Below are positions 1 to 18,878 of a stretch of DNA of 19,375 bases, piece after piece. This stretch comes from Candidatus Iainarchaeum sp. (GTDB lineage Archaea; Iainarchaeota; Iainarchaeia; Iainarchaeales; DTGL01). The DNA lies in contig JAWALG010000022.1 of the NCBI GenBank assembly GCA_038886995.1, positions 1 through 19,375 on the forward strand, read 5' to 3'. The stretch's first letter is position 1. Each line of letters starts with the position of its first letter. Both the position numbers and the translations under genes were made by a program. The notes under the pieces were generated by a model that was not told the DNA's origin, did not search any database, and saw only the letters and a list, made by a program, of their open reading frames with translations.

Positions 1-1777
1 TAACCCTTTCCAGGTGTGCGCGGTCTCTTATGCTTAAGTCAAAAACAACTCTTATCACATTTTGAGAATCGATTTTAATTTCACTCTTAAGAACCTTTAC
101 CTTATTCTTTTCAAATTCTCTAAACAAGTCACTGAGGATATCAGCCCTTTTGAAAGCCCAGGCCTCCATTCTAACAGCATAGCCGCCCCTTTTCAGCAGA
201 TCTTGTCTTACCGAAAATATCTTCTTATGTGATAGGTTTGGCAGTATCGTACAATCAGTTCTATGTACTGTAATCTCCCCCCCTTTTGTTTCATAAGCTA
301 CAATGTCGTCTCCGGGCAGAGGTGTGCAACACTTTGCAAGAATTATCTTTTCAATTTTCTTTGGACTAACAACCATCTTCTTTAACTTATTTGATTTAAT
401 TCCAAACTCTTTCCTTATGGCCAATTTTGCTTTTTGAGTTTTCACAAATTTTAACCATTCAGGTCTAACCGTCTTCGTCTTGCTTAAAATAATTTTTACA
501 GTGTCACCACTGCTTAGTCGATATTTGCCCGACCTTTTAACACCGTTTACTAGCCCATACTTAAACTTATTTCCCAGATCTGTATGTATAGAATATGCGA
601 AATCCAGGACTGTGGCTTTTTTAGGCAGCAGAAGCACATCTTTCTTGGGTGTAAGTACAAAAATAAAATCGCCAGTGATTGAAAACTTTACATAGTCAAA
701 AAGGTCTTTGGCTAGGTTCTGCTGAAGCTCCACCAATTGCCTTGCCAATGATAAGGCCGCATCGAACCCACTATATTGATACCACTTCTTATAACGCCAG
801 TGTGCTGCAACCCCATATTCTGCTTCTCTGTGCATTTCAATTGTTCTTATTTGTATTTCTACAGGCAGGCCATCTATTTTTGCAACCAAGTGTATTGATC
901 TGTATTTATTATCTTTTGGGTTAACAATGTAATCCTCAACCCTGCCAACCAGTTCAAAAGAATCGATAATTGCACTAAAAGCCTTGTAACACTCCCTTAT
1001 TGAACCACATATAACTCTGATGCCAACCAGATCCATTATTTCTTCAACGCTTCTACCTTCTTCTTGACACTTTCTGTATGTGCTGTACACGCTTTTAACT
1101 CGGCCTTGTACTGCAAAAGTTATGCCTTCACGATCTAATAGTTCCTTTATAGCCCCCTTTGCTTTTTTGATGAAATCTTCTGCATTTGGGACCTTTTTAT
1201 ACATTTTTGCCTTAGTGCTTTTGTACTCTTTTGGCGAAATAATAGCCATTGCCAGATCTTGTAACTCTGAACTTACTTCAACAAGGCCGAGCCTTTGTGC
1301 TATCTTTGAGTGTATTTCGAGGGCAATTTTTGCCTCGGTTAACACAGCTTTGCTCTTTTTCTTTTTAATATGCCTCATATAATCTAGCTGTGAAAGTATC
1401 TCAACTATGATGCCCCTCACATCCTTTGATGAAGCCAAAAGTATTTTTGCTAAGCTTTCGCTGCTAAGGTGCCCAATATTTCTTCTCTTTATATCGCCAA
1501 TCTTTGCAGACTCTTTAACTATTTCTATTGTTTTTTCGTCGACTGATGCAAGGGGGCTTTGTTCAGTTAGCTCGTGTAACAAGCAGGCCGCGACCGTTCT
1601 TTGATCAAATCTGAGCTCAAGTGCTATATTTGCAGTTCTCAACTGATGACAAAATTTTTTTTCATCAGAAAAATTTTTGGCAAATCTAAAAGCTTTTATT
1701 ATATTTTTACAGCCATCTTTATCAAAAATATTTTGTAAAGTCCCGACAAAGAGCTTGCTTTCTAGTTCACAACCCAC
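1..1777 (-). CDS. relA: Long RelA/SpoT homolog (RSH), (p)ppGpp synthetase with pseudo-HD, SYNTH, TGS, ZFD and ACT domains; 3' end lies outside the window
   Basis: Manual translation gives an open frame of 592 codons from GTG at 1777 (in-frame TAG just upstream) to the window edge. Motifs: AACLLHELTEQ (HD-like), SKDVRGIIVE, IAQRLG...ELQDL, QGRVKSVYSTYRK, EIMDLVGIRVI, DYIVNPKDNKYRSIH, VEIQIRTIEMHREAEYGVAAHWRYK, TGS FVLTPK..LPKKATVLDFAYSIHTDLG..VNG, ZFD AKCCTPLPGDDI..TVHRTDC, then ACT-like RMEAWAFKRADILSDLF. The symbol denotes family and architecture, not proven orthology. Confidence 0.95.
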   Translation of the reverse strand, partial: MGCELESKLFVGTLQNIFDKDGCKNIIKAFRFAKNFSDEKKFCHQLRTANIALELRFDQRTVAACLLHELTEQSPLASVDEKTIEIVKESAKIGDIKRRNIGHLSSESLAKILLASSKDVRGIIVEILSQLDYMRHIKKKKSKAVLTEAKIALEIHSKIAQRLGLVEVSSELQDLAMAIISPKEYKSTKAKMYKKVPNAEDFIKKAKGAIKELLDREGITFAVQGRVKSVYSTYRKCQEEGRSVEEIMDLVGIRVICGSIRECYKAFSAIIDSFELVGRVEDYIVNPKDNKYRSIHLVAKIDGLPVEIQIRTIEMHREAEYGVAAHWRYKKWYQYSGFDAALSLARQLVELQQNLAKDLFDYVKFSITGDFIFVLTPKKDVLLLPKKATVLDFAYSIHTDLGNKFKYGLVNGVKRSGKYRLSSGDTVKIILSKTKTVRPEWLKFVKTQKAKLAIRKEFGIKSNKLKKMVVSPKKIEKIILAKCCTPLPGDDIVAYETKGGEITVHRTDCTILPNLSHKKIFSVRQDLLKRGGYAVRMEAWAFKRADILSDLFREFEKNKVKVLKSEIKIDSQNVIRVVFDLSIRDRAHLERV

Positions 1778-1797
1778 AAAGAAATTCTGCTAAATAG

Positions 1798-1805
1798 TTA
1801 ATAAA
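1798..1805 (-). promoter_or_regulatory. Putative TATA box (TTTATTAA) of the RSH gene, leaderless-type spacing
   Basis: TTTATTAA lies 21-28 nt upstream of the GTG with no SD motif; the same octamer lies 22-29 nt upstream of the tpiA ATG. Confidence 0.5.
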
Positions 1806-1845
1806 AAAAGATATTCGGCATGCATAACTAATTTTGGCGCTATTC

Positions 1846-1852
1846 TTAAAAA
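1846..1852 (+). promoter_or_regulatory. Putative TATA box of the SRP RNA gene
   Basis: TTAAAAA 23-29 nt upstream of the predicted RNA 5' end (about 1875). Confidence 0.45.
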
Positions 1853-1874
1853 CCCAAATAAACAATAATCTATT

Positions 1875-2141
1875 GTGGGCTAGGCTGGGGAGCTAGCGGT
1901 TCCCTGTACCGGAAATCCGCTTTATGCCGGGCCGAAGTTCCGGGGGAGGCTTTAGGCCGAAGGCAAAGCCACAGCAGAACTTTGATGCTTTGCCCCCACC
2001 GGCTTCACTTTATGGTGAACCCGCTAGGCCCGGAAGGGAGCAACGGTAGCCACACTGTGAAGTGCTGTGGGATCTCAGAGCGGAGGTATGCTGTGGGCCA
2101 ACTTTGCTTTTGGTCTTTTGCCAACTCCGGAGCGCGCCCAC
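1875..2141 (+). ncRNA. ffs: Signal recognition particle (7S) RNA, about 267 nt, with Alu domain and helix 8 but apparently no helix 6
   Basis: GC-rich island. Terminal helix GTGGGC/GCCCAC. Alu domain with UGU motif (CCCTGTACCGG) and GCGG/CCGC loop-loop complementarity. Long helix 5 (AGGCCGAAGGCAAAG/CTTTGCTTTTGGTCT; CCACAGCA/TGCTGTGG). Helix 8 signature GAACCCGCTAGGCCC-GGAA-GGGAGCAACGG at about 2017-2046. Confidence 0.95.
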
Positions 2142-2150
2142 TTAAAGCAT

Positions 2151-3275
2151 TTAAATACGTTGTCCTTTTCTGTATTTCATTTTAGAACTTTTTAACGCTT
2201 CTTTCTGCAGTACACTAAGCGCATCTTCTAGCGCAGTCAGGAGATTCCAAGATTCTGAAGAAGCATTGAATGAAAATTTTCCTGATGTTACCTTTGCCTT
2301 TACTAAATGCCTTGCCCTCATACCTTTTTTTCTCTGTGATTTGAAATGTATTGAAAGCATTACGTCTGCAGGCAGCAACCTTTCAAGTTTCTCGTACGCT
2401 GCTTTTATTCTTGTTTTCGCCTTTTCTTCATCCAAACTGCTTAGCGCAGGCATGCCTGATATTTGAATCTTTAAATAAGGCCTTTCCTCATACAATGTTG
2501 CTTTTAACACATCTTTCGTTGTAACAATTCCCCTAATCTTTTTTGCTTCTATTAGTAAGATGCTCTTGTCAGAGACAATCTCTTCCTTTGCTGCTTTCAA
2601 AGTATCTGAAGGTCGGAATGTTTTTGCTTCTTCCATAAGTTCCTGAATCTTCACACCCAAGATTTTTTTTGCTTCTGGTTCTTTGCCACTCAAGGAAAAA
2701 AGGCCTGTTTTTTTTGGTGAATGTATGAAATATTTTTCTATAAGGCCACTCAATGTTACCACGCCACAGTAGTTGCCAACATCATCAACTATTGGTATCT
2801 GCTTTACATTCATTTTTCTCATAATTGCTAAGGCTTTCGCTATGGTATCGTCCTTTCTTGCCTCGAAAGTTTCTGAACATATGCTCTCAAGTTTCGTCTT
2901 TGCGACTCTTTCATCTTCAAGTGCGTTGGAAAGAACATCTTTTATATGCACAAAACCAATGATCTTGCCGGAGCTCATTACTGGCAAAAGCCTTGCACCT
3001 GATTGATACATCTGCTCAGCAATTCTACGCAAATCGTCTTCTTCTGATAAAAAAGGCACCTTGCTTTCTACGATTGTCTTAACCTTTAATTCTGGATATA
3101 TCCTTTTCCTTCTAAGAAATTCCCTCGGTGTTAGCAAACCTAAAAAAGCATCTCCAGAAAAAACCGCCAGTGTGCTTTCACCACGCTTTAGCATAACACT
3201 AAAAGCTTCTGATATCTTTGCATCAGCATCTACTTTTGCAACATCCTTCAAAATAAGTTCTGAGGCTTTTACCAT
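2151..3275 (-). CDS. CBS-domain protein (4 CBS) with C-terminal HPF/RaiA-like domain; Hib-type archaeal ribosome hibernation factor
   Basis: Four CBS repeats (LAVFSGDAFLGLLT, LPVMSSGKIIGFVH, IPIVDDVGNYCGVVT, KKIRGIVTTKDVL). The C-terminal about 105 aa fit a beta-alpha-beta-beta-beta-alpha pattern ending NASSESWNLLTALEDALSVLQKE, typical of the HPF/RaiA fold. SD GAGGTGA upstream. Confidence 0.8.
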   Translation of the reverse strand: MVKASELILKDVAKVDADAKISEAFSVMLKRGESTLAVFSGDAFLGLLTPREFLRRKRIYPELKVKTIVESKVPFLSEEDDLRRIAEQMYQSGARLLPVMSSGKIIGFVHIKDVLSNALEDERVAKTKLESICSETFEARKDDTIAKALAIMRKMNVKQIPIVDDVGNYCGVVTLSGLIEKYFIHSPKKTGLFSLSGKEPEAKKILGVKIQELMEEAKTFRPSDTLKAAKEEIVSDKSILLIEAKKIRGIVTTKDVLKATLYEERPYLKIQISGMPALSSLDEEKAKTRIKAAYEKLERLLPADVMLSIHFKSQRKKGMRARHLVKAKVTSGKFSFNASSESWNLLTALEDALSVLQKEALKSSKMKYRKGQRI

Positions 3276-10106: not shown

Positions 10107-12023
10107 ATGGTCCAACTATTTGTTCCTAGCAAAAAAGATTATAATTTAGAGCGCATAAAGCCACTTGAAGAAAAGCTAAATTATCTCAAGGCAAAGGTCG
10201 TTGAAGAAGAAGTACAAGACGAATCCGTATCCATGTTTATTTATCAACTTGAAAAGGAACTTGAAAAAGCAAAAATTGGAGATGAAAGTGCCCTGAAGAG
10301 AGCGTCACTTCTTGCTGACAATATAGAGCAGCGACTTCCAAAAAAAGAAGCAGTTGAACCAGCAGACACCTTAGAGGAACTCAGAAGCAAGATAAAAAAA
10401 CCACTTGTTGAAGAACCAAAGAGCATTCAGGAAGGACAACTAGAAGCACATCCTCCACAAAAGGAACCTACAGTCGAAAAGACCTTGTTTGAAGAGCAAG
10501 AGACGTTGGATTCCCAAGAAATTTTCCCTAAAGAAAAAGTTGCGGCTGCCTTTGAACCAATAATTGAGGAAAAGCCATCTCAGAAGTTGCAGGTTCAAAA
10601 GGAAACTCCATATGCTGCCACTAAGAGTGATGTTCCAAGCAGTGGTGGTGAAATTTTAAAAGAAGAGGGGGGTATTTTTGAAGAATTTGCATCTGAAAGT
10701 GAAGAGGTAACGCCACTAATACAGGCTGAAAAAGAAGTTCCCACTACTGAGCATTCTGTTGAACAGGAAGAGCCAATAGTCAAGCCGACTTGGCAAGAAA
10801 AAAAGCAGAAGAAAGAGAAGAAAAAAGCAAGTATTTCTATTGTCTCATTTGACAAAGAAAACGCTGAAGCGCTTTTCAAGAACTCCATTGAGCTTGTTAC
10901 AAAGGCACAACTTGAGAATGGTGGCATAACTTCTGGCTTAAATGCTGTTCTAAACTATATTTATCCCAGAGCGCACCTTCTCTCAACACTTGGCTTGGTC
11001 TACGCCGGAAAATTTGAAGAAGCAAAGAAAGCGCTTTCCTTTGCTATAAAAGGCCAGAATAGGCATACCGGCGCCTTGCCACAAAGATGGGATTATCATG
11101 GAAATGATGCAAGTTACCGTAAAGTTGAGCCGGACTGTACAGCACTGTTCCTGTACACTTTTGCAAAGTATGTCTCAAAGAGCTCTGACTATGAATTTGC
11201 TGAGCATAACTGGGAACGCATTGAGAAATCTGTTGACTTTATAAACTCAAAGATAATACCAGGTAAAAACCTCGTTCTTACACCATCTTCAATACACGAA
11301 TATGCCCCAATGGATTACGGCTACGAGATATGGTGTAATGCTGTTTGTTGTGCTGCTTTAAGGGAATTGAGCGCAATAGCTGATAGGATAAGGTTGCAAT
11401 ATCCGCCTTTGGATAAACAAAATCTTTTGCGCGAATCAATAATGTCATTCATGTGGAATAGTAGGCTTAACACATTCATAAAAACAATAAAAGTTGAGGA
11501 TGCAACGAGTGTTATCACAGGGCCAGATGCTTCAGTGCTCGCCTTATCATTCTTCAATGTTTTCCCCAGTAACGATGACCGGCTAAGAAGCACAATTGAA
11601 TTTACAGAGAAAAACCTAAAGTATGGTGCATTAGGTGGAATTATGGATTACCCACCAACTTATGGCCAAGAGAGCAGTGGCGTTGGCGCGAGCACACTTT
11701 TCACAATGCTGCTGGCTGACTATCACATATCACAAAACAATTTTGATGAAGCAAGGGACTATATGCAATGGATACTTAGTGTTTCATCTGACTGGAAATT
11801 GCCAAAGTACGTTTCTACAAAGGACGACTTTGAGGCATTGGTCTCTGATCTAAATGATGCTGGCCTTATTGATAGGGAAACACTTATGATGATTGAAGGA
11901 ACCAGAAAGCACCCAGATTATGCTAACAATATTGCACACATAGTTGAGCCATATTTGCCAGCCCACGGGGTCTTCCTTGTAACTTGGAGCCACTTCAAGG
12001 ATAAATTCAAAGATCAATTGTAA
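10107..12023 (+). CDS. GH15/glucoamylase-like (alpha/alpha)6-barrel protein with long coiled-coil plus acidic N-terminus; probably catalytically inactive
   Basis: The C-terminal about 385 aa follow the archaeal GH15 layout (QLENGGI, YIYPRA, GALPQRW, EPDCTALFLY, WERIEKSVDFI, PDASVLAL..F.VFP..DDRLRST), but key motifs are altered. The N-terminal about 245 aa are E/K/P-rich. Confidence 0.7.
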   Translation: MVQLFVPSKKDYNLERIKPLEEKLNYLKAKVVEEEVQDESVSMFIYQLEKELEKAKIGDESALKRASLLADNIEQRLPKKEAVEPADTLEELRSKIKKPLVEEPKSIQEGQLEAHPPQKEPTVEKTLFEEQETLDSQEIFPKEKVAAAFEPIIEEKPSQKLQVQKETPYAATKSDVPSSGGEILKEEGGIFEEFASESEEVTPLIQAEKEVPTTEHSVEQEEPIVKPTWQEKKQKKEKKKASISIVSFDKENAEALFKNSIELVTKAQLENGGITSGLNAVLNYIYPRAHLLSTLGLVYAGKFEEAKKALSFAIKGQNRHTGALPQRWDYHGNDASYRKVEPDCTALFLYTFAKYVSKSSDYEFAEHNWERIEKSVDFINSKIIPGKNLVLTPSSIHEYAPMDYGYEIWCNAVCCAALRELSAIADRIRLQYPPLDKQNLLRESIMSFMWNSRLNTFIKTIKVEDATSVITGPDASVLALSFFNVFPSNDDRLRSTIEFTEKNLKYGALGGIMDYPPTYGQESSGVGASTLFTMLLADYHISQNNFDEARDYMQWILSVSSDWKLPKYVSTKDDFEALVSDLNDAGLIDRETLMMIEGTRKHPDYANNIAHIVEPYLPAHGVFLVTWSHFKDKFKDQL

Positions 12024-12819: not shown

Positions 12820-13599
12820 TTAAAGCATATCAAGCTTGCTTGCAGGCGCTATAACCTCTATGCTTTCACCAACCGAAAACAAAAAGCCACGCAAGGCAAT
12901 TCCCACATTTAAGTTTTTTTCTTCTAAGAAACTCAAAAGCTCAAAAGCCCTTTCAGGTGGCACAGTCAGGGTATCTGCTTGTGTTTGAAGGCCCATTTTT
13001 ATTGCGATTGCCTCTAAAGTTTGCTTATATGCAGTTATGATTAGCGTATCTTTTTCTCCCTGTTCAAATAATCTTCTAAAAATTTCCTTCAACAAATCCC
13101 TGTTAAAGACCCTTTTATTTGGAAAGTCCATCTCCTTTAGTGTCTCAATCTGCTTCTTTAGTATCCCGCTCAGGTAAGTGAGTTGTTTTGACTGCTTATC
13201 CAAATCAACCCATATTTGTTCGATATCGCATATATAAAAACCAGCATTGTTTCTTGCAATATCGAGAAGTTCTTTTTCTATTTTGCTGCGCTCTATTAAA
13301 ACAGAAAGTTGTTTAACTGTTTCATTAGCATTTTTTTCTTTTACACTGTTATTAAGCTTTATAATAAGCTTGCTTTTCATCCTGCCGTACAAGTATGCGT
13401 TACCTTTGTCTGTAATATAAAGAGAACCATTTTTCCTAGTGATGTACCCAAGAGCGGATAGATACCTTACAATCCTGCTTAGTGCAGCCCTCGCAGAGTT
13501 TATGCTTGAATAATCGCTTAAAATGCTAGAGAGCACCTCAGTGTATTTAATGCCCTGCCTTTGTTTCAGAATTAACAATATCGCTTCTTTTGAAACCAT
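12820..13599 (-). CDS. Hypothetical protein with N-terminal winged helix-turn-helix
   Basis: 259-aa ORF; ILLILKQRQGIKYTEV...RAALSRIVRYLSALGYITRKNGSLYITDKG is a wHTH-like pattern, followed by a helical segment. Confidence 0.7.
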   Translation of the reverse strand: MVSKEAILLILKQRQGIKYTEVLSSILSDYSSINSARAALSRIVRYLSALGYITRKNGSLYITDKGNAYLYGRMKSKLIIKLNNSVKEKNANETVKQLSVLIERSKIEKELLDIARNNAGFYICDIEQIWVDLDKQSKQLTYLSGILKKQIETLKEMDFPNKRVFNRDLLKEIFRRLFEQGEKDTLIITAYKQTLEAIAIKMGLQTQADTLTVPPERAFELLSFLEEKNLNVGIALRGFLFSVGESIEVIAPASKLDML

Positions 13600-14550: not shown

Positions 14551-14955
14551 TTGGCTGAGTATATGCTAAAATCAAAAAGGAAGGTTAGCGGCGGCCTGAG
14601 GCATAGCATTGAACGCTGTGACAAGAAGCTCGCTTGGAAGGGCAATCCACCAACATTGACGAAGGTCGCTGAGAAAGAACAGAGGAAAAAAGTAAAAGGC
14701 AGAGGCAAAACACAAAAGGTCAAGCTTCAGAAAGCAAGGAGTGCTTCAATAACTGATAAGGGCAAGGTTTTCACTGCTGAGATAAAACAAGTAGTAAAGA
14801 ACGATGCAAATAGGCAATACACTAGGCAGAATGTCATTACCAAAGGCGCAGTAATTGAGGTTGAGCACGAAGGCAAAAAGCTAAGAGCAGTAGTTACGAA
14901 CAGGCCTGGGCAGCATGGTGTTGTTCAGGCAAAGCTCATTGAAGAACAAAAGTAA
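14551..14955 (+). CDS. rps8e: 30S ribosomal protein S8e (eS8)
   Basis: SKRKVSGG, KVKGRG, V.NDANRQYTRQNVITKGAVIE, AVVTNRPGQHGVVQA. Start placed at TTG 14551 after the GGTGA SD. Confidence 0.96.
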   Translation: MAEYMLKSKRKVSGGLRHSIERCDKKLAWKGNPPTLTKVAEKEQRKKVKGRGKTQKVKLQKARSASITDKGKVFTAEIKQVVKNDANRQYTRQNVITKGAVIEVEHEGKKLRAVVTNRPGQHGVVQAKLIEEQK

Positions 14956-15003
14956 GCAACACAGGCCACCTAATTTCTTGTTTGGAAAACATAACAGAAA
15001 AGC

Positions 15004-15011
15004 TTATAAAA
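15004..15011 (+). promoter_or_regulatory. Putative BRE/TATA (GAAAAGC-TTATAAAA) of the pilin gene
   Basis: Purine-rich BRE-like stretch directly before TTATAAAA; strong SD GAGGTGA at 15049-15055. Confidence 0.55.
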
Positions 15012-15059
15012 TACAAATTCTTATTATTTTGCACTAAAAAGCTTTTATGAGGTGATATA

Positions 15060-15482
15060 ATGAACTCAAAAGGTATAAGCCCTGTTATTGCGACAGTTCT
15101 TTTGGTGTTGGTTGCAGTGATGATAACAGTGGTTGTGGCGACTTTCCTAATGAGCTCAACACAGGAACAAAAGGCAAAAACAGAAGAAGAACTCAAAGGC
15201 ATAGGCAGCGCAAGCTTTGTAGTTAAGACATGCACCCGCTCAAACACAACAGTAACCCTTTTGCTAGACAATACTGGCAGCGTAGATCTGAACAATTTCA
15301 GTGTAAATTGTCTAGATTCTACTGGAGCTACAAAAGCAACAGCTACAATTTCTTTTGATGTTCTTTCACCAAAAGAAACAGACACAAAAACAGCAACTTG
15401 CACTGCTGACACTACGAGGGTTAGAGTAACATCAGTAGAATATCCAAAGGCAATGTCGGAGAGAGACTGCACAACAAGCTAA
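15060..15482 (+). CDS. Archaeal type IV pilin (class III signal peptide)
   Basis: MNSKG/ISPVIATVLLVLVAVMITVVV; beta-rich globular part with NTGSVDL and 4 Cys. Confidence 0.92.
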   Translation: MNSKGISPVIATVLLVLVAVMITVVVATFLMSSTQEQKAKTEEELKGIGSASFVVKTCTRSNTTVTLLLDNTGSVDLNNFSVNCLDSTGATKATATISFDVLSPKETDTKTATCTADTTRVRVTSVEYPKAMSERDCTTS

Positions 15483-15489
15483 ACACAAA

Positions 15490-15508
15490 TCTTTCTTTTT
15501 TCTTTTTT
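15490..15508 (+). terminator. Oligo-T archaeal terminator-like tract after the first pilin
   Basis: TCTTTCTTTTTTCTTTTTT beginning 8 nt after the stop codon. Confidence 0.5.
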
Positions 15509-15517
15509 GGTGTTTTT

Positions 15518-15982
15518 ATGCCTTTTAGTCTGAATATGGGGCGCACACAGAAAGGCATAAGCCCTGTAATTGCAACAGTGCTCCTAGTTCTTGTAACCGT
15601 TATATTAGCAGCAATGTACTTTGGTTGGCTTCACAGCTTTGCTGGAGAAAGCATAACTAAAGGCGAAGAAATAGGTAGAAAGAAGATAAACTGCAGCAAT
15701 GCAGGCATAACAATACTTTCTTGCAGTTATGATAAAGGCGGAACTGAAATAGTATCAGTTACAATAGAAAACACCGGCTCTGTGGACTTAAATGGCTTCA
15801 AGGTTATTGCGAAGTACACTGATAACACCTCTGATTCGAACAATAATAGCAACCTCTATCTTGATGCTGGCTCTACGGGTATTGTATACCTGACCGCAAA
15901 CTACGAGAAAACCGTTTCAGAGGTTAGAGTAATTCCATTACAATGTGATATCATTAGCGATACAACATCAGCATGTAGTTGA
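15518..15982 (+). CDS. Archaeal type IV pilin, paralog of the upstream pilin
   Basis: QKG/ISPVIATVLLVLVTVILAAM; ENTGSVDLNGF; 4 Cys. Start may be 15536. Confidence 0.92.
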   Translation: MPFSLNMGRTQKGISPVIATVLLVLVTVILAAMYFGWLHSFAGESITKGEEIGRKKINCSNAGITILSCSYDKGGTEIVSVTIENTGSVDLNGFKVIAKYTDNTSDSNNNSNLYLDAGSTGIVYLTANYEKTVSEVRVIPLQCDIISDTTSACS

Positions 15983-16014
15983 ATAACAAAAATCAAATAG
16001 GATGAGGCATCTTT

Positions 16015-16407
16015 ATGGCATTAAAGCCCTTCGTGGAGGTCTCAATTGTTCTTTTGCTAATATTCTCACTTTTCTTCTTCGCGGTTTTTTTACCGCAATT
16101 TATAAGTCAAAACATTACCCAGGATCCAAAAGCCAGAAGCAGGATAAAACTTGTCGCTTTTCTTAAATCTGATGAGCCAGAATCAGTAAAATTTGAGCAG
16201 ATACTGAGAAAGCTGTCTTCTGAGCCGGAGCTGTCAGAAATATTTACTTATGAGATAATACTTGCTGATGTAAATCCAGAAAAGCTAAGGCCTTATGGCA
16301 TTGAATCAAGGCAAACACCTTGCTTTATTTTAGGCAACGAGATTTTAAGCTTAAGTGCTGATGAAGCTTGGCTTAGAGCCAAAATAATTGCTCTTTCAAA
16401 AGCATAA
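16015..16407 (+). CDS. Membrane-anchored thioredoxin-fold-like protein lacking CxxC
   Basis: N-terminal TM helix, then IKLVAFLKSDEPESVKFEQILRKL...YEIILAD.NPEKLRPYGIE..TPCFILGNE; SD GAGG upstream. Confidence 0.55.
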   Translation: MALKPFVEVSIVLLLIFSLFFFAVFLPQFISQNITQDPKARSRIKLVAFLKSDEPESVKFEQILRKLSSEPELSEIFTYEIILADVNPEKLRPYGIESRQTPCFILGNEILSLSADEAWLRAKIIALSKA

Positions 16408-16458
16408 AAAAATCCTGATAATGCTTTTAAACAAGTAAAGCATATTCTATTTGAGAGG

Positions 16459-18489
16459 ATGTGCAGCAAAGCATTCATTTACAGCATTATCTTGCTTTTT
16501 ACCATGCCTGGCTTTTCCCTAGCAGCTCGAATAGATTCTATAGTAATCGAAGATGGTAACACATATACAAAGAATCTTAGATTGGCTGTTTCAATTATTG
16601 CCGAAGCTGATGAGATTTGCTTTTCCTGCAATTCAGAAAACTGGACGAATTGGCAGGCCTATTCACAAAATACAAACTTCTTGCTTACGAATTCATATGG
16701 TTGCAGTACTGTTGATGGCAACAAAACAATATATGTAAAAGCAAGGGACTCAAGCGGCGAATCTTTGGCTATGGCAAGCATAATTCTTGATAGAAAAGCG
16801 CCAATAGCACCATCAAACATTGCTGTAGCACTGTTAGATAAAAAAGTGAAAGTTTCATGGGCTGCTGCTTCAGATTCAAGTGGCATATCCCACTATGTTT
16901 TAACAATCCAGGAATACGGCTTGCAAAAAAAAGAGTTCACAGTGACTGTTCCATCTGATGAAACAAATTATGAGCACAATGCACTAGAGCGGAGAAAATA
17001 CTGCTATCTTGTAACTGCTTATGACCTAGCAGGCAATAGCTCCACAAGCACAAAGGAGCAATGCGTAGTAACCTCCACAAAAGGTCCTGAATTCACACTG
17101 AGCGTTTTTGACGCCAATATGAGCCAAAGGGATTTCAATGGCGTGAGCTACTTTTCAGCGGAAAGAATTAACATTATTGTTGAGCTTCTCGATATAAATG
17201 TCATTGTAAAAGACATTTTTGGGAGCATAACCCAAGGCAATGAAACCGAGGAATTAAGCTTTATAAAGAATGCAAACGGCTTTCTTTCTGATTATAATTT
17301 GAAGAGCATAGATGGAGAAGCAAAGATAACGGTTACTTTGATAGACAATCTTGATCTCAACAGCACACAAACATTAAGCTTATATGTCGATTCTACGCCG
17401 CCTGACATCAACATTGTTTCATTAACACAAACAGGCAAAAATGAGCTCACTGCTAAAGTTCAGCACTCAGAGGATGTTTTCAAAATAGTTGTCTCTTTTG
17501 GAAGCCAAGAGCAGATTTTTGATAAGGGTTTTAGCGATTCTTCTAAAGAGTCAACGCTCAAAATTGACCTAAATAACATAAATTCTGAGAAAATAACATT
17601 AAATTTTGTCGCCCTCGACTTTGTTATGAATAAAGCCGAAGCCAAAGCAGAAAAGATACTTCTGCTAAATGCGGAAGCCAAGGCAAACGATCTTGAAAAA
17701 CTAGCTGAGCAGATCTCAGAGAAAATTTCAAATAACAAAGATGTTGCCTTGTTTGAGCAGAAGGGCATTGCAGAGGAATTGTCGGGTCTAAAAAGCAAAA
17801 TTACTGATTTAAAAGAAAAAATGAGCTCTGGCGACTATGAAACGTCTAGGGGTGTGCTTACTGAATTGAAAAATAACCTTGAACAGCTAAGTTCAAAGAT
17901 AGCTGATGTTTCATTAGCGCAGAGCTACCTAATTGACTACCACGAAGAAAAACTTGTGTTCTACGACGAGCTCAAAGGTTACTTCAAAGAATTCCCAACA
18001 AACACTGAAAAACTTTGGAAAAATCTTGCAATAAAAAGGGCCATTAATCTGATTGAGATAAGTTCAAGCTCAGGAAAAAACTATGCAATTGTAGTTTCCC
18101 TTTCAATTAAGAACGTGAGCGCCGAAACTTTAAGCAACTTTTATATGGTTGATTTTGTCCCAGAGAAAATTGCTAGAGACCTTAATGAAGTAAAGAGTAA
18201 TTATCCATCCCAATTTGGCAAAAACCCCCAAACCATATTATTTGAGATTACTGCCTTAGAGCCAAACGAAAGCATTGAGCTCAAGTATCGCGGAAAGCTT
18301 CTTCTACCAGATGAATTTAATGGCTTGAAAATAGAAAATTCTGATTTTCATGTTCCGGTGCCTTTAGAAGACCTTCGCACAGAAATAACCTTTGTCAAGA
18401 AGTCCAAAAGTTTTGATATCTTTCCACTTTTGTTTTTAATACTAGCTTCATTTTTTGCATTCATCCTTATAAGGAGGCTAAAGAAATGA
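16459..18489 (+). CDS. Large surface-anchored protein with signal peptide, Ig/fibronectin type III-like domains, coiled coil and C-terminal TM
   Basis: Signal peptide; DGNKTIYVKARD..G and LDRKAP Ig-like motifs; FN3 pattern KVSW...DSSGISHY...YCYLVTAYDLAGNSS; VDSTPP; heptad-rich middle; C-terminal hydrophobic helix plus RRLKK; many N-x-S/T sequons. Confidence 0.8.
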   Translation: MCSKAFIYSIILLFTMPGFSLAARIDSIVIEDGNTYTKNLRLAVSIIAEADEICFSCNSENWTNWQAYSQNTNFLLTNSYGCSTVDGNKTIYVKARDSSGESLAMASIILDRKAPIAPSNIAVALLDKKVKVSWAAASDSSGISHYVLTIQEYGLQKKEFTVTVPSDETNYEHNALERRKYCYLVTAYDLAGNSSTSTKEQCVVTSTKGPEFTLSVFDANMSQRDFNGVSYFSAERINIIVELLDINVIVKDIFGSITQGNETEELSFIKNANGFLSDYNLKSIDGEAKITVTLIDNLDLNSTQTLSLYVDSTPPDINIVSLTQTGKNELTAKVQHSEDVFKIVVSFGSQEQIFDKGFSDSSKESTLKIDLNNINSEKITLNFVALDFVMNKAEAKAEKILLLNAEAKANDLEKLAEQISEKISNNKDVALFEQKGIAEELSGLKSKITDLKEKMSSGDYETSRGVLTELKNNLEQLSSKIADVSLAQSYLIDYHEEKLVFYDELKGYFKEFPTNTEKLWKNLAIKRAINLIEISSSSGKNYAIVVSLSIKNVSAETLSNFYMVDFVPEKIARDLNEVKSNYPSQFGKNPQTILFEITALEPNESIELKYRGKLLLPDEFNGLKIENSDFHVPVPLEDLRTEITFVKKSKSFDIFPLLFLILASFFAFILIRRLKK

Positions 18490-18878
18490 TGAAAACATTT
18501 GAAGTTATGATTGCTGGTGTAATCATAATAGGCATGCTTGCAATGCTTTCTTTGCCAACTATTAGCCCGCAGGCAAAGTACGCCGAAGTTAGGGCAAATT
18601 GCGAGTCAGCACTTCTCTCCATGGCAGAAGATAACTCGCTAAGGGCCTTAATTATAAGTACCTCTGATGAAAACTCTTTGGCAAGCGTAAAGGAATATAT
18701 GTCACAATATATACACTATCCTTTTGAAGTTCAAATATGCGATGAGAACAACCAATGCATAGGTCAAAAGCCAGATTCTGAGAACTATGTGCTAGTTTCC
18801 TACCTTTTCGACGGTAACATAACCCAACACAAATTAGCGGTGGTGAAGATATATGCCAAACCATACAGCTCAGAATAA
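18486..18878 (+). CDS. Small membrane-anchored, minor-pilin-like hypothetical protein
   Basis: MKTFEVMIAGVIIIGMLAML: a Glu followed by a hydrophobic helix. ATGA overlap with the upstream gene. Confidence 0.65.
   Translation: MMKTFEVMIAGVIIIGMLAMLSLPTISPQAKYAEVRANCESALLSMAEDNSLRALIISTSDENSLASVKEYMSQYIHYPFEVQICDENNQCIGQKPDSENYVLVSYLFDGNITQHKLAVVKIYAKPYSSE

Follow-up and report, generated by a model that had tools for sequence, protein, structure and literature searches.

A compact long RelA/SpoT homologue with an intact synthetase site and a decayed hydrolase site in a Candidatus Iainarchaeum genome

Gene and domain architecture

The window analysed here is the 19,375-nucleotide stretch from position 1 to position 19,375 of contig JAWALG010000022.1 (C22) of assembly GCA_038886995.1, assigned to Candidatus Iainarchaeum sp. 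of the archaeal phylum Iainarchaeota (Diapherotrites). It opens with a gene for a long RelA/SpoT homologue (RSH), encoded on the minus strand (2..1777) as an open frame of 592 codons that starts with GTG at 1777 and exits through the first base of the window. The original prediction had placed a frame of at least 592 residues here, outside the open reading frame (ORF) track, and the frame is indeed open over that length. The track missed it because it is cut by the start of the window, where contig C22 begins as well (the assembly comprises 866 kb in 38 contigs and is 88.6% complete). The missing end was found on a second contig of the assembly, C2, whose first 220 nt overlap window positions 1-220 in reverse with one mismatch and supply 16 further codons and the stop (C2:220-270). 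The whole RSH is 608 aa long, of which the window encodes residues 1-592. The single mismatch, T/C at window position 108, exchanges Lys and Arg, and a Logan contig from the run that is the likely source has the C2 variant. C22 and C2 are adjacent in the genome, and the break between them falls inside the ACT domain. A 608-aa protein record on a 9581-nt contig (P0002) represents the same RSH, with 100% identity over 592 aa. The GC content of the region (0.38-0.39) matches that of the remainder of the window.

Pfam searches and motif analysis divide the protein into six parts, all on the minus strand. A pseudo-hydrolase with an HD_4 fold (residues 36-165; 1283..1672; 60.5 bits, 2e-15) is followed by the RelA_SpoT synthetase domain (PF04607; residues 225-331; 785..1105; 5e-34) and a TGS domain (residues 372-430; 488..664; 1e-17). 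What remains of the AH domain (residues 437-479; 341..469), recognised by alignment, spacing and AlphaFold modelling, leads to a zinc-finger domain (ZFD, also RIS; residues 480-509; 251..340), which was identified by its CC...H...C motif counts, by the string CC...HRTDC in the translation and by PF28438, a family that the precomputed annotation adds and the Atlas output names RelA_RIS. The protein ends in an ACT/RRM domain, which covers residues 531-592 in the window (2..187) and runs on to 607 in contig C2 (ACT_4, 531-607 of the 608-aa protein, 3.5e-9).

The two catalytic domains differ in their state. All synthetase motifs that had been listed as intact, GRVKSVYS, DLVGIR, DYIVNPKDNKYRSIH, EIQIRT and HREAEYGVAAHWRYK, were recovered in the translation, as was the TGS histidine in FAYSIHT at 586-584, which corresponds to His398 of the DFAYxIHT motif. 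The hydrolase motifs are decayed, with HD changed to HE, ED to EQ and DRLHN to SQLDY. The HD fold itself is retained as a helical region with a confident model (PF13328, 57-60 bits, cut-off 27.2), and its catalytic residues are gone, as in RelA.

The C-terminal half is likewise only partly conserved. TGS, ZFD and ACT were all found, in line with the original prediction, but PF19296, the AH family, gave no match in the C-terminal region; in precomputed Pfam annotation this family is assigned to the bacterial database matches and to none of the archaeal-type ones. Only one conserved helix (WLxFVKTxKAKxxIR) and a linker rich in Lys, for which disorder is predicted, are left of the domain. The TGS His motif and the CC of the ZFD are 82-91 aa apart (median 87) in all 32 archaeal sequences of this type, and 167-190 aa apart (median 178) in each of the 43 bacterial database matches. 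The label "full-length", under which the gene was first described, is too strong, as the architecture lacks about 90 aa of the AH domain and the HD domain is a pseudo-hydrolase.

Structural and sequence comparisons place the protein among long RSHs. The AlphaFold model has a pLDDT of 85.5 and a pTM of 0.79, with values below 50 in the linker (462-475), and Foldseek matches it best to 70S-bound RelA (5iqr, E 1e-32), to full-length SpoT (7qpr, TMq 0.55) and to Bacillus subtilis Rel (6yxa). By sequence, the closest structure is 8fr8_I, a Mycobacterium smegmatis/tuberculosis-type Rel (2.9e-87), to which residues 38-459 align at 109-548 and residues 480-602 at 663-787. This Rel, 6yxa and RelSeq (1vj7) represent the bifunctional enzymes of Actinomycetota and Bacillota, which share the domain order and include neighbours with 34-37% identity. 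In contrast to the archaeal protein, they keep HD, ED and DRLHN, hydrolyse (p)ppGpp and carry a full AH domain (PF19296).

The comparison with Escherichia coli RelA (5iqr, 5kpv), which is monofunctional, is closer in anatomy. Both proteins combine a dead hydrolase and a synthetase that is live in RelA and predicted to be so here with a TGS domain carrying the CCA-reading His, a ZFD/RIS and an ACT/RRM domain. RelA is the best Foldseek match, reaches 1.3e-70 in phmmer and likewise has an acidic residue at the RxKD/ExDD position discussed below. The archaeal protein is nevertheless no RelA orthologue: it scores 252.5 bits against a cut-off of 728 with the proteobacterial RelA equivalog model NF008124 (and 261.2 against 947 with the SpoT equivalog NF008303), and it measures 608 aa instead of 744 aa. 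Residues 83-443 align with RelA 106-477 and residues 480-607 with RelA 609-740, so that about 95 residues of the AH domain between TGS and zinc finger are gone, and the ribosome of the host is archaeal. Compact long RSHs are not confined to archaea: the nearest Atlas cluster consists of 606-aa proteins with TGS, RelA_SpoT and RIS domains, and its members are 68% bacterial.

Two paralogues with opposite decay

To find out which parts of the protein are conserved, we compared it with RSHs of related genomes. In a protein search, a full-length strong match (A-type) was present in 51 of 60 same-order relatives, spread over more than 30 families. A second, weaker match with HD, synthetase and TGS domains occurred in 35 of the 60, all of which carry the A-type too; four of these 35 second matches contain in-frame stops (all hand tallies). 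We took the loci of 31 A-type orthologues and of 20 second or weaker matches. The latter comprise 17 usable B-type sequences, one 323-aa fragment that was dropped and two A-like forms of 460 aa. Five bacterial Rel sequences were included in the alignment, and residues were counted at the motif positions of canonical bacterial Rel; the A-type counts (n = 32) include the RSH of the window.

The A-type sequences are 28-73% identical overall, and their synthetase residues R, K, D, R, E and Q are each present in 32/32, as are the guanine-site Y and H. The acceptor-site K, N, Y, S and H of PKxNxYxSxH are found in 28-32 of the 32. Equally invariant are the TGS His and each of the ZFD ligands C, C, H and C (32/32). 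Conversely, the A-type HD domain retains the D of HD in only 3/32 and the residues of the ED pair in 3/32 and 5/32; no A-type sequence keeps the His of DRLHN. The B-type shows the mirror image: all nine HD positions examined are kept in 17/17, while the synthetase E and Q are lost throughout (0/17 each), two Arg remain in 1/17 and 0/17, the TGS His is found in 0/17 and the ZFD is missing in 17/17. B-type proteins measure 480-670 aa, lack the AH domain as well as the ZFD, retain an ACT-like C-terminus in most cases and are 40-45% identical to Rel of thermophilic Bacillota.

The RSH of the window is intact, native (see below) and conserved, with its synthetase site, TGS His and ZFD ligands invariant and its hydrolase site destroyed. 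These residue patterns make it probable that the enzyme makes (p)ppGpp and cannot degrade it. A catalytically silent pseudoenzyme that serves as a structural scaffold on the ribosome would be a conceivable alternative, considering that one of the two catalytic domains is already dead. We regard it as highly improbable, since the synthetase residues examined are invariant across orthologues of such diverse sequence, and the same residues decayed freely in the B-type paralogue, which is what relaxed selection looks like.

At one acceptor-site position the A-type departs from bifunctional Rel. The Lys of RxKD is Asp in 19/32 and Glu in the RSH of the window. According to Sajish and colleagues, the charge reversal from RxKD to ExDD is reportedly a signature of monofunctional RelA, with (p)ppGpp still being made.

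The reciprocal decay of the two types resembles the division of labour between RelA and SpoT, apparently carried further, to a predicted synthetase-only sensor (here [hS]) and a predicted hydrolase-only enzyme ([Hs]). For the B-type, the counterparts would be Acinetobacter baumannii SpoT (7qpr) and plant RSH1, which we take to be hydrolase-only long RSHs [Hs] with an intact HD domain and a degenerate synthetase; unlike these, the B-type has neither AH domain nor ZFD and is 480-670 aa long. The database names do not reflect this division. A-type proteins are called "TGS domain-containing protein" by NCBI, and B-type proteins either "HD domain-containing protein" or "bifunctional (p)ppGpp synthetase/hydrolase"; judged by the motif counts, the name "bifunctional" is wrong.

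Two further forms were observed. In family f3, two relatives (L029 in genome G014 and L030 in G045) encode a 460-aa form with synthetase motifs and TGS His and with no recognisable HD_4, ZFD or ACT domain, which sits on a very long branch (2.72, FastTree). A 628-aa protein (P0015) lacks the AH domain, keeps LLHD..ED and retains nearly all HD and synthetase motifs. In the FastTree phylogeny its branch arises next to the clans of the B-type and of the bacteria, and it may represent an undivided bifunctional form.

Archaeal origin of the locus

We examined whether the gene truly belongs to the archaeal genome. One might suspect bacterial contamination, a chimeric join or a transfer too recent to be informative about archaeal biology, as the gene is cut by a contig end, its characterised homologues are all bacterial, and the relevant passage of Li et al. 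2021 (mSystems, PMC8407392) predicts acquisition from Bacteria. The surrounding genes are archaeal: the window encodes a short TIM, RadA, RPA, a PcrB-family/GGGP synthase, L44e, Cgi121 and archaeal pilins. Directly divergent from the RSH, and as context rather than part of the system, lies an archaeal signal recognition particle (SRP) RNA gene (1873..2143, plus strand; RF01857, 147.1 bits), which is also next to the RSH in a relative (L058).

The join between RSH and SRP RNA is spanned by contigs from two studies. A 9581-nt Logan contig, probably from the source sample, covers window positions 1-2400 with 1 difference, and a 16820-nt Logan contig of a second study covers the same positions with 119 differences and encodes an RSH (P0243) identical at 570/608 positions. 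Both extend past the window start. The closest named relative, with 73% identity, is encoded on a 203-kb contig that bears the title Candidatus Iainarchaeum, where the order GGGPS-MBL-RPA-RadA-TIM-CBS-SRP RNA-RSH-KaiC-like-tRNA-LysRS reproduces C22 in reverse followed by C2. The region from 1700 to 2200, for which a chimera check had been proposed, is thus continuous at the level of contigs and synteny, and the earlier statement that the RSH is contiguous with archaeal genes is borne out. Identity to the nearest bacterial proteins is no higher than 34-37%, and 51/60 relatives in more than 30 families hold an orthologue. As the sampled bacteria also form one clan excluding the archaeal groups (support 100 and 96, see below), an explanation by contamination, a chimeric join or recent transfer is effectively refuted; synteny on the 203-kb contig and the bridging contigs of two studies rule out the first two.

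Distribution and phylogeny

Across the phylum, the family model TIGR00691 (spoT_relA) matched at E<=1e-15 in 113 of 151 sampled genomes and in 43 of the 55 high-quality ones. Matches over the curated cut-off were found in 27/151. The frequency varies between families (f30, 2/17; f3, 7/15; f34-f37, 0/10). Ten of 14 named control genomes were matched, all ten being bacteria.

The RSH sequences fall into three groups. In an LG+G4 tree of 50 rows, made from 14 of the 32 A-type, 10 of the 17 B-type and 26 bacterial sequences, each set forms one clan (SH-aLRT 92 for A-type, 99 for B-type and 100 for bacteria). In a FastTree phylogeny of 103 rows, the bacteria (support 96) and the B-type again form one clan each. 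No archaeal group nests within the sampled bacteria. These bacterial rows are the database matches most similar to the queries, a biased choice in which Pseudomonadota RelA/SpoT, named Spirochaetota and Candidate Phyla Radiation sequences are not represented. With this sample, the trees name no donor and do not separate one acquisition with duplication from two acquisitions. An old acquisition followed by duplication within the lineage would fit them, a scenario that we do not claim on a biased sample and unrooted trees. On this grouping, the loss of the hydrolase is independent of that in E. coli RelA, as the archaeal group is its own clan (E. coli RelA itself is outside the trees).

The occurrence of RSH genes in the phylum has been reported before. 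In the passage concerned, Li et al. 2021 found RelA/SpoT in 69.0% of Diapherotrites, which is comparable to the 113/151 genomes here, and also in three other DPANN groups (Woesearchaeota, Pacearchaeota and Nanoarchaeota); the figures for DPANN groups outside this phylum are theirs alone. The presence of an RSH in the phylum is already published in that text and is thus less surprising. The same passage deals with presence only and gives no domain anatomy, paralogue distinction or activity. It was the only publication linking RSH genes to DPANN found by searches combining ppGpp, stringent response, SpoT or alarmone with DPANN phyla, or for archaeal RSH. The earlier statement that archaea are regarded as lacking long RSHs agrees with the corresponding part of the reference survey of the family, where none is listed for archaea (Atkinson 2011). 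What appears new relative to the literature found is the AH-less [hS] anatomy and the reciprocal [hS]/[Hs] pair; the subfamily tables of Jimmy et al. 2020, whose summary text counts 13 long-RSH subfamilies, were outside this comparison.

Together, these data lead us to favour, with reasonable but not high confidence, a compact monofunctional long RSH with the architecture [hS]-TGS-(AH remnant)-ZFD-ACT that is native to an Iainarchaeota archaeon and was vertically inherited across the phylum.

Other features of the locus

The 95-nt spacer between the GTG of the RSH and the divergent SRP RNA gene holds a T/A-rich stretch that may be a TATA-like box (1797..1810, minus strand), 20-33 nt upstream of the GTG. 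Within the SRP RNA gene, two short conserved segments, 1886-1936 and 2020-2053, attract many short, high-depth DNA and RNA contigs with 90-95% likeness; other archaea of the hot springs sampled are their very likely source.

Contig C2 encodes, just behind the RSH, a KaiC-family ATPase of 247 aa (L002:334-1077, plus strand; PF06745, 1.5e-71), followed by a tRNA and LysRS, an order kept in the Iainarchaeum relative. Elsewhere in the window, a 638-aa ORF (10107-12023, plus) has no Pfam family at E<=0.001, and two minus-strand ORFs of 259 aa (12820-13599) and 178 aa (14936-15472) are also without Pfam family; the latter is possibly no gene, since a pilin-like ORF overlaps it on the opposite strand. 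The region 15060-18878 (plus) encodes small proteins whose N termini have archaeal pilin signals (15060-15482 and 15518-15982), then a protein of 676 aa that matches fn3 and Big_13 weakly and two small ORFs without families, and may be a surface-filament or adhesion locus.

A candidate hydrolase partner

A synthetase that cannot degrade its product would need another route of alarmone removal, and the B-type paralogue would fill this role in many relatives. We looked for it in the assembly of the window (G000). In all four same-genus relatives examined (L015, L016, L017 and L026), the B gene converges, tail to tail, on a neighbour that a Pfam check of the copy in genome G004 identifies as the gene of a class I aminoacyl-tRNA synthetase. 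The orthologue of this synthetase gene in G000 is found at 81-1517 (minus strand) of contig C26 and ends 80 bp from the contig start. As this conserved neighbour of the B gene stops so close to a contig end, the likelier explanation for a missing B gene is that it sits in an assembly gap.

Several observations weigh against the reading developed so far. A same-genus B protein used as query had no match in the G000 assembly, which is 88.6% complete, and a PF13328 search of this assembly returned no other HD_4 protein. Four near-complete relatives with a hydrolase-dead A-type, G028 (1 contig, 99%), G027 (2 contigs, 97%), G025 and G050, have no other HD_4 gene, and G014 (1 contig) carries the 460-aa form only. 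Because near-complete relatives are A-only, the pair model is not general, and some other route of alarmone removal is required in these genomes. The RSH itself scores 405.9 bits with TIGR00691, under the curated cut-off of 499.2. The AH domain of bacterial RelA runs along the A/R-tRNA, and the shortened TGS-to-ZFD spacing rules out bacterial ribosome geometry for the archaeal protein. Finally, a search of sequencing runs listed no RNA data set containing the sequence, and the one metatranscriptome compared with the window matched it only at the SRP RNA (1886-1936 and 2020-2048, 90-95% likeness, probably from other organisms) and is mute on expression of the RSH.

Proposed function

From the conserved residues, we propose that the enzyme moves pyrophosphate from ATP to GDP or GTP and thereby yields (p)ppGpp. 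Regulation could follow the model of RelA. In the resting state, the C-terminal domains would keep the enzyme autoinhibited, and synthesis would begin once the TGS domain contacts an uncharged tRNA at its CCA end while ZFD and ACT anchor the enzyme to the ribosome, with the flexible linker taking the place of the absent AH domain. In many relatives, the alarmone would then be cleared by the B-type [Hs] paralogue, which has neither ZFD nor TGS His. What speaks most for a trigger by tRNA and ribosome, if indirectly, is that the parts with CCA-reading and ribosome-anchoring roles in bacteria are always kept in the A-type and have been dropped from the B-type. RelA-like autoinhibition and activation by uncharged tRNA at the ribosome nevertheless remain a tentative proposal that may well prove wrong.

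The main competitor, and a less probable one, is a real (p)ppGpp synthetase that is regulated off the ribosome, with TGS, ZFD and ACT serving autoinhibition, oligomerisation or the binding of a ligand or partner, and uncharged tRNA playing no role. Regulation of this kind through the C-terminal domains is known for some Rel/SpoT enzymes. It would agree with the lack of about 90 aa of the AH domain in 32/32 orthologues and with the 460-aa f3 relatives, in which synthetase and TGS persist without the ribosome anchors ZFD and ACT. The compact AlphaFold model also comes nearest in overall shape to ribosome-free SpoT (7qpr, TMq 0.55, compared with 0.42 for ribosome-bound RelA). However, a compact model is expected of any autoinhibited resting state and is no argument against a ribosome-bound state, and the TGS His and all four ZFD ligands, invariant in the A-type and lost from the B-type, fit the expectation for parts through which tRNA and ribosome activate synthesis.

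The reaction product might also be a different one. Some toxic small RSHs pyrophosphorylate the CCA end of tRNA, and the archaeal enzyme could do the same or make (pp)pApp, acting as an effector of growth arrest or defence. Such a role would suit the several near-complete genomes that have the synthetase and no RSH hydrolase, as well as an acceptor motif unlike that of bifunctional Rel (the RxKD substitution, with Glu here). It would also be in keeping with Braun 2021, in the relevant part of which radiolabelling and liquid chromatography-mass spectrometry revealed no (p)ppGpp in haloarchaea and Sulfolobus and the alarmone appears as never found in archaea. Against this stand the long-RSH architecture with canonical acceptor residues, the best sequence and fold matches, which are to Rel/RelA and not to toxSAS, and the housekeeping neighbours with no antitoxin-like partner among them; moreover, the reversal towards ExDD is a known mark of monofunctional RelA, which still makes (p)ppGpp. 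We consider a different product very improbable and retain (p)ppGpp as the predicted one.

The most far-reaching form of the proposal is a complete, vertically inherited alarmone cycle in Iainarchaeota, in which an AH-less, RelA-like sensor-synthetase that retains TGS, ZFD and ACT would read uncharged tRNA on the archaeal ribosome and a separate hydrolase-only paralogue would switch the signal off again. At present, we regard this full cycle as possible but doubtful.

Implications

Whether archaea use (p)ppGpp is a long-standing question. The locus described here offers a concrete, conserved enzyme with which to address it, and the relatives offer its likely hydrolase partner. The value of the finding is tempered by the fact that the presence of the gene in the phylum has been published and that its function is deduced from sequence throughout.

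The host is a small hot-spring archaeon with a shortened version of RelA. Its RSH bears on the question whether a sensor of the RelA type, its regulatory arm much reduced in length, could function on archaeal ribosomes. The A/B pair provides a clean natural example of subfunctionalisation, in which the TGS His and the ZFD go with synthesis and the other C-terminal parts do not. If the complete cycle were true, the division of labour between RelA and SpoT would have been re-invented independently in Archaea, for which this would be the first genuine stringent response.

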